A stretch of 64,000 bases of DNA, taken from Escherichia coli. Its GTDB lineage: Bacteria; Pseudomonadota; Gammaproteobacteria; Enterobacterales; Enterobacteriaceae. Location of the stretch: assembly GCF_024700885.2 (NCBI RefSeq), contig NZ_CP117016.1; one strand, written 5' to 3'. Position 1 is the stretch's first letter. Each line of letters starts with the position of its first letter. The translations under genes and the position numbers were made by a program. The notes below the pieces were generated by a model, which saw only the letters and a program-made list of their open reading frames with translations, was not told the DNA's origin and made no database searches. Positions 1-34,997 of the stretch are shown here, in pieces.

Positions 1-28
1 CTTTTCAGTATGATCTCAGGAGGTTGCT

Positions 29-697
29 ATGTGTGGACGCTTTGCCCAATCCCAAACGCGTGAAGATTACCTTGCGCTTCTCGCGGAAGATATTGAACGC
101 GATATTCCCTACGATCCCGAACCCATTGGCAAATACAACGTCGCGCCAGGAACCAAAGTTCTTCTGCTCAGTGAACGTGATGAACACCTTCATCTGGATC
201 CGGTTTTCTGGGGATATGCTCCCGGATGGTGGGATAAACCGCCGCTGATTAACGCCCGCGTAGAAACTGCGGCAACCAGTCGTATGTTTAAACCGCTCTG
301 GCAACATGGTCGGGCAATCTGTTTTGCCGATGGCTGGTTTGAGTGGAAAAAAGAAGGCGACAAAAAGCAGCCTTATTTTATCTATCGTGCTGACGGACAA
401 CCTGTTTTTATGGCCGCGATAGGAAGCACACCATTTGAGCGTGGTGACGAAGCCGAAGGATTTTTGATCGTCACTGCGGCGGCAGATCAAGGTCTGGTAG
501 ATATTCATGACCGCCGCCCGCTGGTTCTGTCGCCAGAAGCTGCACGGGAATGGATGCGGCAAGAGATTAGCGGTAAAGAAGCCTCTGAAATTGCTGCCAG
601 TGGCTGTGTGCCAGCAAACCAGTTCACCTGGCACCCGGTATCGCGCGCGGTGGGTAATGTTAAAAACCAGGGCGCGGAGTTAATTCAACCTGTTTGA
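29..697 (+). CDS. yedK: SOS-response-associated peptidase (abasic-site processing protein) YedK
   Basis: Track ORF of 222 aa with ATG at 29; N-terminal MCGRF motif typical of the SRAP/YedK family; position upstream of yedL and fliE matches the E. coli map (recalled). Confidence 0.88.
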   Translation: MCGRFAQSQTREDYLALLAEDIERDIPYDPEPIGKYNVAPGTKVLLLSERDEHLHLDPVFWGYAPGWWDKPPLINARVETAATSRMFKPLWQHGRAICFADGWFEWKKEGDKKQPYFIYRADGQPVFMAAIGSTPFERGDEAEGFLIVTAAADQGLVDIHDRRPLVLSPEAAREWMRQEISGKEASEIAASGCVPANQFTWHPVSRAVGNVKNQGAELIQPV

Positions 698-807
698 TAA
701 GCCTGGAGATTATTGATCAACAATACTGCGTCATAAGAAATCTCTATTAGACAAAGATTTCATTACCTGTTGGCATATTGCAAAAATAACACCAATACGG
801 AATCGTC

Positions 808-1287
808 ATGTTCACGATTAAAACAGATGATCTCACCCATCCAGCAGTGCAAGCATTAGTGGCTTACCATATTTCCGGCATGCTGCAGCAGTCTCCCCCC
901 GAAAGCAGTCATGCTTTAGATGTGCAAAAATTACGTAACCCGGCAGTGACATTCTGGTCAGTATGGGAAGGCGAACAACTCGCAGGAATTGGTGCGCTGA
1001 AGTTGCTGGATGATAAACATGGCGAACTGAAATCAATGCGTACCGCGCCAAATTATTTACGTCGAGGTGTCGCCAGTCTGATTTTACGCCACATTTTGCA
1101 GGTCGCCCATGACAGATGCCTTCATCGCCTGAGCTTAGAAACGGGTACACAGGCTGGATTTACGGCCTGCCATCAACTTTATTTGAATCATGGTTTCGTT
1201 GATTGCGAACCGTTTGCTGATTATCAACTTGATCCACACAGTCGATTTTTGTCATTGACGCTATGCGAAAATAATGAATTGCCATGA
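808..1287 (+). CDS. yedL: GNAT-family N-acetyltransferase YedL
   Basis: Track ORF of 159 aa; acetyltransferase-like core; synteny with yedK. Confidence 0.8.
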   Translation: MFTIKTDDLTHPAVQALVAYHISGMLQQSPPESSHALDVQKLRNPAVTFWSVWEGEQLAGIGALKLLDDKHGELKSMRTAPNYLRRGVASLILRHILQVAHDRCLHRLSLETGTQAGFTACHQLYLNHGFVDCEPFADYQLDPHSRFLSLTLCENNELP

Positions 1288-1294
1288 GCCAGAC

Positions 1295-1335
1295 GCAGCA
1301 CATTCTTGCATTCGACGTGCTGCGCCTTTATTCAT
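1295..1335 (+). terminator. Hairpin plus T-rich tract after yedL (copy A of a repeated palindromic element)
   Basis: GCAGCAC...GTGCTGC stem followed by CCTTTATTCAT; a near-identical element occurs at 33377-33416. Confidence 0.5.
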
Positions 1336-1704
1336 CACCAGCCGCATATGTCTTGTCCTTAGACGCTCCTTCCACATGCGCCACAAGAAACCTCTATTCC
1401 AGTGACACAATTATGCCTAATTATTTCCATTGCCCGGAATATGAATAAAAACATCAACAAAGATTAAATTATTCAAACGTTACTGTTGCGTCAGTGGTCG
1501 TAGCAACATCCGACGTGGTGATGTGTGTTAAAGGAGACGCTCTGATGCTCAGATGGTTTATCGCGTTTACGGATCGTGGATGGCAGAAAACAATCAGGAT
1601 CAGGTATCCATTTTAAACCAGAAATTGATTGAGTTTGCCCCATCCATGCCCCACGCTGTGGGATCGGATGTAATTAAACAAGCATAGTCAACAGGTTACA
1701 CAAC

Positions 1705-2019
1705 CTACACCTGCATGCTCATCACTTCCTGATACGCCGCCACCAGCTTATTACGCACCTGAATCCCCATTTGCATTGAAACTGAGGCTTTTTGCATATC
1801 GGTCATCACATCGTTTAACGCCACGCCGGGTTCACCGAGAGTGAATTTTTCTGCCTGCGTGCGGGCGGCTGTTTGTGTATCGCTTATGCGATCGAGCGCG
1901 GCGTGCAGCTGCCCGGCAAAACTAATGGTCGGTTGCGGCAGTGATTCCTGCGCACGTGCACTCATCGCCGTGGTCTGTAACTGGCTGATAACCCCTTCAA
2001 TCCCCTGTATCGCTGACAT
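1705..2019 (-). CDS. fliE: Flagellar hook-basal body complex protein FliE
   Basis: Track ORF 1705..2049; FliE-length product (104 aa) starts at the internal MSAIQGIEG; divergent from fliF. Confidence 0.9.
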
Positions 2020-2233: not shown

Positions 2234-5558
<3,325 letters not shown>

Positions 5559-32466: not shown

Positions 32467-33013
32467 TATGTCTGTAGAAAAAAACTGAGAAAACGGCGAA
32501 CAATAAATACACAACTCGCCAATACAGACTGGCTGCGCCAATGTCTCCAGGAGCAAGTCATCTGTCATGGTAAAGCTAACCAGAAATATAGGTTAATTTT
32601 GGTATTTAAACCTTTTTTACTTGTTAGTATGATACAAAGGCTTTCAAAAAAGCTGGGAAATTCAACAACTCTTGGAAATTATGGACTTTGTCCCGCGGCT
32701 TTAATCTGACGGCCGCGTTCCTTTTTTTGCTCAATTATTGACCCCTTCTCTATGCAACTTCAGTTCCCACCACCAACTTTGCGGCAGCTTCGTAGGATCA
32801 ATGTCTAAAAGAATAATGGTGACCGATAAGAAAACGACTGAATAACTGCAGATTTTCGCTCGAAACCTTCCTGTCAGATCCATAGCGAATCAAGTGCTGA
32901 ATGTCACAGTATCGAACAGAAAACAGTGACGATCTAACCCTTCAAGAATATTCTACGATTGTTCTGTTTAGGAAAAGCAAGGCGGGAAGTCGGGAGATAA
33001 GTCATTGATAAAG

Positions 33014-33075
33014 TGGCGGAGAGAGGGGGATTTGAACCCCCGGTAGAGTTGCCCCTACTCCGGTTTTCGAGACCG
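33014..33075 (-). other. Truncated tRNA-Ser(CGA) serU, 3' 62 nt only; prophage attachment-site remnant
   Basis: Minus strand reads CGGTCTCGAAAACCGGAGTAGGGGCAACTCTACCGGGGGTTCAAATCCCCCTCTCTCCGCCA (anticodon loop to CCA end of serU as recalled); the 5' part (D-arm and acceptor 5' strand) is absent. Confidence 0.85.
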
Positions 33076-33376
33076 ATGATACAGAGTCGAAAAATCAAAG
33101 AGTTAAAAATTTTTCTTGGAATAAATGTCTTAAAATCGTACAAGAAAAATCAATGAATTACATAACATTAAAGAAGAATATTCCAAGCCTTCTTGAGGCT
33201 ACCACCTGTTTTCAGGTGTCATTCAGACGTGATTTGCCCCAGATTGGGAAAGCACGCTTTTTTCTCAGCTTATTCCGTTTTGCCTGTGTGTTGAATAATT
33301 CCACTGCAGTTATATAAAATCGGTAACGTCTGGAAATCATTCAATACTCGCACTATCGAAAGTTCACCAGCCAACC

Positions 33377-33416
33377 GCAGCACGTTCTTGCATACGACGT
33401 GCTGCGGTTTTCTTTA
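33377..33416 (+). repeat. Palindromic hairpin element, copy B (near-identical to 1295-1335)
   Basis: GCAGCACGTTCTTGCATACGACGTGCTGC followed by GGTTTTCTTTATG; about 28 of 31 core positions match copy A. Confidence 0.5.
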
Positions 33417-33566
33417 TGATTTATGCACAATGGACAATTTGAAATTATTGATGATTGAATGGTGCATCGTTTTCTGAACCTACACTGATTTTTTGGTATA
33501 GCCTTGCCTAGCCAGTCTTACCGGATCAAACCCTTCGCTATTGCAATACTAACCAAAATCATCAAT

Positions 33567-33595
33567 TTGACAGCGATTAACCAAAATAATAGTAT
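33567..33595 (+). promoter_or_regulatory. Candidate sigma-70 promoter of the cargo diguanylate cyclase
   Basis: Perfect -35 TTGACA, 17-bp spacer, -10 TAGTAT, about 70 bp upstream of the ATG. Confidence 0.4.
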
Positions 33596-33665
33596 ACTAT
33601 CACCAGTAAGAAATTATCGTTATTTGTAGCGATACATATTATATATATCATTCTCAGGTGCGTAC

Positions 33666-34997
33666 ATGATTATCAACCAGGTACCTATAAAAATAAAAAT
33701 CTTCATCTTTTTATTTTCATGCATCTCTATTATATTTTTGTTACTGCATGAAAATAATGGAATATACATAACACAAACAACACAAATAAGTTATAGTGTT
33801 TTCATTATTGGGCTTTTTTTCATAAACCTGATGATTTTTATTTTTCTATTGCTTTACTATGTTTCTAATCAGAGACAAAGTTATCTCTTAATTCTTTCAT
33901 TCGCGTTTTTGAGCAACACGTATTATTTATTAGAAGTGGCTATTATTTCTTTATCTCCGTTAGGTAACGATTTATCTACAATCTATCAGAAATCAAATAA
34001 TATCGCAATATATTATCTATTCCGTCAGTTCAGCTTTATATCTATAATCTTTCTGGCTGTTTATTCCACCAATGTTAAAAATAAAAGTGTTTTAGAAGAT
34101 AAAAGAAACATAATAATTGTTGTTTTGTCAATATTAATTCTTTTTATTACTCCGTTTGTAGCAAAAAATCTAAGCAGTGACAATATAAAATATAGTCTTA
34201 ATATTATACAATACTCGCTGAATCGTCATTTGTCGACGTGGAATATCGTGTACACCAAAATAATATCAGTATTTTGGCTTGTATTACTTATCAGCTCATG
34301 CATCAGCATACGTAATTACTCAAAAATATGGTTGTGTATAATACTTATTAGTATAGTGTCAGTATGCAATAATCTAATTTTATTGTATTTTATTGATAAA
34401 TCCCATCCTGCATGGTACATGACAAAATTTCTTGAATTGATATCAATGATTTATATCATTTCAACACTCATGTATTATGTTTTTAGGAAATTAAATCATG
34501 CTAATCATATGGCAATTCATGATCCACTAACGAATACATACAATAGAAGATACTTTATTGACTCATTGAAGAACATATCAAAACACCATGATTTCTCAGT
34601 AATAATGTTAGATATTGACAGTTTCAAAAGCATCAATGACAAATGGGGGCATCATATGGGTGATCAAGTCATAGTAATGGTTACCAGAATAATAAAAAAA
34701 TCCATCAGGAAAGAGGATATATTAGGGCGCTTAGGCGGTGAGGAGTTCGGTATTATCATTAAAGGTAATACTCAAAAGCTCTTGCTATCAATTGCAGAGC
34801 GAATCAGAAAAAACATTGAAGAGCAATGCTCGGAAAAATTATTATCGCATGGACCTGAGAAAATAACTGTCAGTATTGGTTGCTTTACTTCAAAAGAGAA
34901 TAATCTCAGTCCATCTGAAATGTTAGTCAATGCCGACAAAGCGTTATATCAAGCCAAAAGAACCGGAAAAAACAAGGTGATAATTCACTCAAAATAA
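33666..34997 (+). CDS. Membrane-anchored diguanylate cyclase (multi-TM sensor domain plus GGDEF), DgcX-like prophage cargo
   Basis: 443-aa ORF; very AT-rich (I/L/F/N/K/Y-rich) N-terminal membrane domain; C-terminal GGDEF domain with RLGGEEFG active site and upstream RKED I-site-like motif. Confidence 0.85.
   Translation: MIINQVPIKIKIFIFLFSCISIIFLLLHENNGIYITQTTQISYSVFIIGLFFINLMIFIFLLLYYVSNQRQSYLLILSFAFLSNTYYLLEVAIISLSPLGNDLSTIYQKSNNIAIYYLFRQFSFISIIFLAVYSTNVKNKSVLEDKRNIIIVVLSILILFITPFVAKNLSSDNIKYSLNIIQYSLNRHLSTWNIVYTKIISVFWLVLLISSCISIRNYSKIWLCIILISIVSVCNNLILLYFIDKSHPAWYMTKFLELISMIYIISTLMYYVFRKLNHANHMAIHDPLTNTYNRRYFIDSLKNISKHHDFSVIMLDIDSFKSINDKWGHHMGDQVIVMVTRIIKKSIRKEDILGRLGGEEFGIIIKGNTQKLLLSIAERIRKNIEEQCSEKLLSHGPEKITVSIGCFTSKENNLSPSEMLVNADKALYQAKRTGKNKVIIHSK

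Follow-up and report, generated by a model that had tools for sequence, protein, structure and literature searches.

In Escherichia coli K-12 MG1655 the genes yedL and fliE are 1620 bp apart, and two pseudogenes are annotated between them: yedN (b4495), on the minus strand, and intG (b1936), which is assigned to 'cryptic prophage PR-G'. At this position O157:H7 carries genes for EspR3 and EspR4, intact relatives of the yedN cassette that are type III effectors with DUF5503 and LRR domains (in EspR4, Pfam reports DUF5503 and LRR_4). On the phage side, IdasGreatGrand-like or P22-like prophages lie at fliE in strain UTAK-1 and in several Citrobacter and Enterobacter species. Phages that use the 3' end of a gene as their target, and restore the gene on integration, classically have a copy of that end in their attP. 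The literature found on yedN/intG/fliE, on EspR3/EspR4 and on fliE as an attB consists of virulence-gene lists, with nothing on the yedL-fliE junction.

Here we analyse this junction in a stretch of 64,000 nucleotides of E. coli DNA (contig NZ_CP117016.1), hereafter the window, in which yedL and fliE are convergent and the spacer between them is 417 bp long (1288-1704). The window shares with K-12 intG/PR-G the locus, the flanking genes yedL and fliE, the point at which the integrase gene (int) is truncated and a hairpin, with flanks that are 95-97% identical, but it is without the 1207-bp yedN/EspR cassette; K-12 intG has an 11-bp deletion at the integrase end, whereas the window keeps the full C-terminal codons and the stop. 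Relative to O157:H7, the position between yedL and the int remnant and the flanks are the same, whereas the 1958-bp tandem duplication with two intact effector genes has no counterpart here. The order of core, arm and int is that found at the attL of the prophages at fliE, with the core in the fliE 3' end, a 17-nt arm and an int 3' end at 96-98% identity, yet the window keeps only the last ~160 nt of int and has neither xis nor a phage body nor an attR. We propose that the 417-bp spacer is very probably one allele of a highly variable, decayed prophage scar at the 3' end of fliE, the scar annotated in K-12 as intG/PR-G. The region 700-2300 is 100% identical to E. coli strain 1190, in which PGAP gives the same genes. 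The features to which we refer are the following.

29-697, plus strand: yedK, SRAP peptidase (Pfam SRAP, E 2.7e-52; PGAP of strain 1190)
727-748, plus strand: left copy of an imperfect direct repeat of ~22 bp, TGCGTCATAAGAAATCTCTATT (self-BLAST)
757-1359, plus strand: yedL segment of 603 bp (promoter region, yedL, hairpin), an indel in E. coli
808-1287, plus strand: yedL, GNAT acetyltransferase (Pfam Acetyltransf_1, E 5e-13; PGAP annotation)
1291-1327, plus strand: stem-loop called hairpin copy A, which begins 3 nt past the yedL stop (inverted repeat, 91% complementary)
1377-1398, plus strand: right copy of the ~22-bp imperfect direct repeat, GCGCCACAAGAAACCTCTATTC (self-BLAST)
1423-1431: empty-site junction of the cassette, the 9-mer ATTTCCATT (overlap of BLAST segments; boundary sequences)
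1432-1529: non-coding relic DNA, not integrase-derived, common to K-12, O157 and yedL-less genomes
1530-1687, plus strand: 3' remnant of a tyrosine integrase gene, equivalent to K-12 intG/PR-G (tblastn, DNA match, PGAP pseudogene)
1634-1654, plus strand: candidate arm-type integrase binding site, TTTGCCCCATCCATGCCCCAC (from its recurrence)
1688-1704: phage-derived attL arm, from the int stop to the fliE stop (phage attP identical but for one base)
1705-1724, minus strand: att core, the last ~20 nt of fliE (…ATGAGCATGCAGGTGTAG), found also in the attP of the phage, at naive attB sites and at either end of the prophage of UTAK-1
1705-2019, minus strand: fliE (PGAP of the identical strain; ORF list)
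from 2234: fliF, after fliE
33369-33417: hairpin copy B, a 14-bp stem followed by UUUUCUUU (dG -24, z -5.2)

Comparison with K-12 and the yedN/EspR cassette

The original prediction, made from the sequence alone, put the distance between yedL and fliE at about 420 bp, which agrees with the 417 bp measured, and named yedN, yedM and an integrase remnant as the content of this place in K-12. The K-12 map agrees with this, and the compact junction is not shared by MG1655. That the window is without the K-12 islet is true of yedN/yedM and untrue of the integrase remnant, which is still present at 1530-1687. Aligned by BLAST, the window matches K-12 at 97.1% identity over 1-1431 and at 95.2% over 1423-2300, leaving a block of 1207 bp in K-12 unmatched (locus L002, 2233-3439). 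The difference is one clean indel that spans the yedN/yedM pseudogene, of the EspR-type DUF5503/LRR effectors, from its stop codon to ~80 bp upstream of its start, and an ORF with DUF5503 and LRR between yedL and the int remnant is absent from the window. A second K-12 locus at 2.75 Mb was rejected, being the same locus in a rearranged K-12 assembly.

Among 5426 complete E. coli genomes the cassette is present in 1530, the junction is uninterrupted across 1431 in 1182, and at least 80% of the 417-bp spacer is found in one piece in 213. The region 700-2300 recurs in 12 genomes, 11 of them with 100% identity and one with 99.9%; three O166:H15 strains are among them. The compact junction is an ordinary allele, common and already annotated, of a known cryptic-prophage scar, and the yedF-fliE interval has at least six structural alleles in E. 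coli, represented by the following strains.

K-12 and 042: yedL and one cassette
O157:H7: yedL and tandem espR3/espR4 (1958-bp duplication)
This window: yedL, no cassette
OkiPb01684: neither yedL nor cassette (757-1359 cleanly missing)
UTAK-1: cassette present, no yedL, which was lost between the 22-bp direct repeats
APEC O2:K1:H4 strain E12053: yedK truncated, with IS200, ybcM, ybcL, emrE and another integrase fragment in the gap

At the APEC O2:K1:H4 locus (L005, 2532-6124) the truncated yedK is accompanied by an IS200/IS605 transposase, ybcM, ybcL, emrE and a second, unrelated integrase fragment, and the gap corresponds to a B2-type, DLP12-like emrE-ybcL-ybcM remnant. As ybcM, ybcL and emrE are DLP12 prophage genes in K-12, a different lambdoid remnant occupies the fliE site in this strain.

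We lean, at slightly better than an even chance, towards secondary loss or allelic replacement as the origin of the cassette-less state. The alternative, which we rate a little below even, holds that the window keeps an ancestral empty site, for the yedN/EspR cassette only. The cassette would then have been inserted once, at 1431, in a common forebear of the K-12, O157 and 042-type alleles, and the allele lineage of the window would never have received it. An ancestral empty site would account for the tight fit of the indel to the effector gene, which is AT-rich foreign DNA and was inserted at some point, and for the flanks of the K-12 cassette, each of which matches the window 9-mer ATTTCCATT at 7/9 positions, like a decayed target duplication. 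It also agrees with the existence of two clades of uninterrupted alleles, 13/96 positions apart, that have the same junction, and with the distance matrix, in which the cassette-bearing flanks cluster together and a K-12-type flank is central. Yet the cassette is found in widely differing backgrounds (K-12, O157:H7, 042), and the flanks closest to those of the window (98%, 042/CB8671 type) carry it. In addition, over the 36 nt that directly follow the junction on its right side, the window agrees with the K-12-type flank at 36/36 positions and with the espR3-type at only ~70%, which places the empty allele inside one cassette lineage. The ends of the cassette also argue against a simple insertion of the IS or transposon type, as no terminal inverted repeats were found at them and the two flanking 9-mers, alike at only 5-6/9 positions, are not a clean target-site duplication. 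All four combinations of yedL and cassette exist, indicating that recombination has shuffled the flanks, and the points favouring loss include other independent deletions at the locus, yedL having been lost in two different ways. When the flank distances are used to polarise the indel the signals conflict, the 36 nt favouring loss and the two deep empty-allele clades an ancestral empty site.

No phage match was found for the EspR cassette when it was sought in other contexts, and in E. coli it occurs only at the yedL-fliE locus. Its alleles (K-12 type, 042 type and O157 espR4) are only 84-86% identical to one another, with flanks at 93-97%; this may mean that the cassette is far older than the flanks suggest, that it was imported repeatedly or that it is under diversifying selection.

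The yedL segment and its hairpin

The segment 757-1359 is exactly missing in strain OkiPb01684, in which window positions 1-756 abut 1360-2300, and ~970 genomes match the window only from 1360 onward. The two copies of the direct repeat (727-748 and 1377-1398) flank yedL and are 86% identical to each other. In UTAK-1, which has no yedL, a single hybrid copy remains, whereas the commoner yedL-less allele, of the OkiPb01684 type, keeps both copies 47 bp apart; yedL was therefore lost, or gained, by two different routes.

Upstream of this segment, yedK is inside the fliE-yedF variable zone and was found at only one of the 80 species loci scanned, that of Enterobacter cloacae (DSM 26481, L053). 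The homologue in this strain is 76% identical in nucleotide sequence, lies ~3.7 kb from fliE and adjoins integrase fragments in the same hotspot. In the other Escherichia species examined yedK is absent from the fliE-adjacent position. The SRAP peptidase gene may have arrived at the fliE site as cargo.

Hairpin A has a stem of 8-10 bp and a loop of 15 nt (RNA dG -15.8 kcal/mol, z -2.4) and is followed by the tail CCUUUAUUC, a weak U-tract. A promoter and terminator scan of the spacer found nothing, the long loop and the tail of hairpin A drawing no call from the terminator scanner, and an Rfam scan of 600-2400 gave no match. The stem and the position do fit, and we consider hairpin A to be probably a terminator of yedL, albeit a weak one. 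It always accompanies yedL and is deleted along with it in yedL-less strains. The original prediction had taken the presence of this hairpin as a sign that the junction is unoccupied; the hairpin exists, at 1291-1327, but its sequence is identical in K-12 and O157, so that it does not mark the compact form and bears no evidence on occupancy.

The window contains two copies of the hairpin, which occurs at 1-4 places per genome. Copy B is 84% identical to copy A over 49 nt and is the better terminator of the two. It lies ~250 bp upstream of an AT-rich gene for a membrane diguanylate cyclase of 443 aa (hairpin and gene together at 33369-34997), which we take to resemble DgcX of enteroaggregative E. 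coli. In strain Ecol_517 this hairpin and gene are paired in the lambda attB region, adjoining both bioA-ybhB and tail-fibre remnants. Hairpin B and the diguanylate cyclase gene look like a prophage-borne accessory gene cassette (moron), and both hairpin copies may come from such cassettes.

That copy B lies in another foreign-DNA region of the window, and in another strain at the lambda attB region by phage tail-fibre remnants, could also be read to mean that hairpin A is a mobile or recombination element, REP-like or att-type, which marks or creates the hotspot. We regard such a role as very unlikely. An element of the REP/BIME type would be expected in tens to hundreds of copies per genome rather than at one to four places, and this hairpin matches no Rfam family, travels with the yedL gene that ends 3 nt before it and is ~380 bp away from the real att core at fliE.

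Integrase remnant and att core at the fliE 3' end

Past the cassette junction, towards fliE, the spacer consists of relic DNA up to 1529. Neither this part (98 nt) nor 1360-1431 (72 nt) has a match in the phage collection or in five other Escherichia species, and 1432-1529 differs from the phage int gene at 52/90 positions, which is the random level. No phage match was found left of 1530.

From 1530 onward the sequence is that of a phage. The open part of the remnant, 1541-1687, to which the "integrase, missing N-terminus" pseudogene of strain 1190 maps, encodes the last 48 aa of an integrase, and these 48 codons are 97.9% identical at the amino acid level to residues 387-434 of the integrase of Escherichia phage IdasGreatGrand (tblastn), a tyrosine integrase of 434 aa with the Pfam domains Arm-DNA-bind_2 and Phage_integrase. 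The 48-aa remnant itself matches no Pfam family and is not a functional tyrosine integrase. At the DNA level, 1530-1724 is 96% identical to IdasGreatGrand, a match that spans the end of int, 17 nt past the int stop and 20 nt of the fliE 3' end. The remnant reads towards the core and ends 17 nt from the fliE stop, and the arm between them (1688-1704) is unrelated to the naive sites of other species. Over the core, 1705-1724, the window and the attP of IdasGreatGrand agree at 18/20 positions and encode the same FliE C-terminus. We conclude that a temperate phage family that includes IdasGreatGrand and CobraSix uses the 3' end of fliE as its attB.

A second core, as the sign of an old attR, was sought in the 64-kb window and none was found, the core occurring once, and the ORF list contains no phage genes between yedK and fliE beyond the integrase fragment. 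Of the parts of a prophage end, the junction has the shared core and an adjoining integrase, truncated and not functional, and is without attR and phage body. Within the remnant, the 21-mer at 1634-1654 has near-identical copies, TTTGCCCCAT(CC/AT)ATGCCCCAC, flanking the att core of the phage on either side and at each end of the prophage in UTAK-1 (beyond the window, at about 4313-4333 in locus L007 and at about 40190 in locus L096). From this recurrence the 21-mer is a candidate arm-type integrase binding site.

What the site looks like before a phage has entered it was surveyed in other species, FliE being used to scan one genome per species, which gave 80 loci. In 14 other enterobacterial species, of the genera Citrobacter, Kosakonia, Phytobacter, Dryocola, Buttiauxella and others, fliE and yedF converge with only 46-94 bp between them, and yedK, yedL and integrase are all missing. 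These naive sites share with the phage only the last ~18-20 nt of fliE, and beyond it they have ordinary host hairpins or REP elements. The window is unlike them: past the fliE stop it continues into the phage arm and then into integrase sequence. In 12 species a full-length integrase of the same family starts 30-39 bp after fliE, and in 7 a truncated integrase remnant is found at fliE. In other Escherichia species the stretch from fliE to yedF is filled with 2.5-5.3 kb of cargo of quite another kind (four species, with cargo that is unrelated). As yedF is within 46-94 bp of fliE at the naive sites, yedK and yedL, and with them the int remnant, lie by this comparison inside the insertion zone.

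The suggestion that the compact junction is a naive attB, never occupied, with K-12 as the occupied form, which draws on the short spacer and on the K-12 extra DNA being missing as a clean block, has next to no probability, as it is refuted by the integrase 3' remnant at 1530-1687 and the phage arm directly adjoining fliE, by the different appearance of the sites in the 14 species and by the int truncation point shared between K-12 and the window. The window is a decayed occupied state, 'empty' only with respect to the 1207-bp yedN/EspR cassette. In calling the place an integration hotspot the original prediction was right, as is borne out by the phage attP and by the integrases found after fliE in the 12 species and in six E. 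coli genomes.

Current use of the site in E. coli

A full-length integrase of the IdasGreatGrand family is present in 8 of the 5426 complete E. coli genomes, and in 6 of these 8 it is next to fliE. In UTAK-1 fliE is followed by int, xis and a complete P22-like prophage of 38.7 kb that ends in a tailspike gene, and then by a second core; past this core come the old int remnant, an EspR-like LRR gene and then yedK. Directly upstream of the core there is an AGC/TCC polymorphism, and its two forms have changed places between the two ends of the prophage, in agreement with the prediction for site-specific recombination. The fliE site is in current use in E. coli.

Proposed history of the junction

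From this anatomy we infer the following order of events. Temperate phages of the IdasGreatGrand/CobraSix type would integrate by site-specific recombination, catalysed by their tyrosine integrase, into the last ~20 nt of fliE, FliE staying intact because the phage carries its own copy of the fliE end. An old prophage of this kind in E. coli would then have been deleted down to the last ~160 nt of int, the truncation point being common to all E. coli alleles examined. This would have left, between yedF and fliE, relic DNA and cargo, namely yedK, yedL and in some strains one or two genes for EspR-type LRR effectors. From left to right, the window presents the hairpin that is probably the yedL terminator, the relic DNA, what is left of int, the attL arm and, inside fliE, the core. 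yedK and yedL may have come as phage cargo or may have been inserted independently. Counting against this explanation, the window holds no second core and no other phage genes, and descent from a prophage is accordingly read from just two elements, the integrase fragment and the arm.

The remnant of the window is closer to the phage than to its own relatives. Over 1530-1704 it differs from the phage at 6/175 positions and from other E. coli alleles at 10-22/175, while the K-12 remnant has 12/164 differences from the phage. We propose that a recent phage of the IdasGreatGrand family replaced part of the sequence of the remnant with its own. The phage could have integrated beside the old remnant and been lost again when its own int recombined homologously with the older fragment; gene conversion is another possible route.

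It is tempting to extend this proposal, and we do so tentatively, as a possibility that we consider rather improbable: the int fragment and arm that persist next to the core in fliE may give incoming phages an extended landing pad, and prophages an exit route. New phages of the family would integrate beside the fragment, and each prophage would then be deleted cleanly and as a whole by RecA-dependent recombination of its int with the older fragment; what stays behind would be a chimeric, 'refreshed' remnant of the kind seen in the window. If true, prophage turnover at the fliE site leaves almost no trace.

The junction should be read as a decayed phage attachment site that is still used, and not as a pristine one. 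It involves no new kind of element or mechanism and in this sense matters little; it could be used to illustrate, on a small scale, how a prophage scar is re-used, and the presence or absence of yedL and EspR could be used as a typing marker.

Other foreign DNA in the window

Two further places in the window are of interest in relation to mobile DNA. At 33013-33078, on the minus strand, a tRNA-Ser gene is cut down to its 3' ~65 nt, and ARAGORN reports no tRNA-Ser for the whole 64 kb. At the corresponding position strain 1190, whose yedL-fliE junction is identical, has an intact tRNA-Ser followed by mtfA. As the gene is cut here and intact there, the window strain differs from 1190 and has foreign DNA from about 33.08 kb onward. 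At 63617-63875, also on the minus strand, tRNA-Arg(tct) and tRNA-Met(cat) lie side by side. This pairing is typical of the tRNA clusters of lambdoid prophages and hints at a prophage in the last part of the window.
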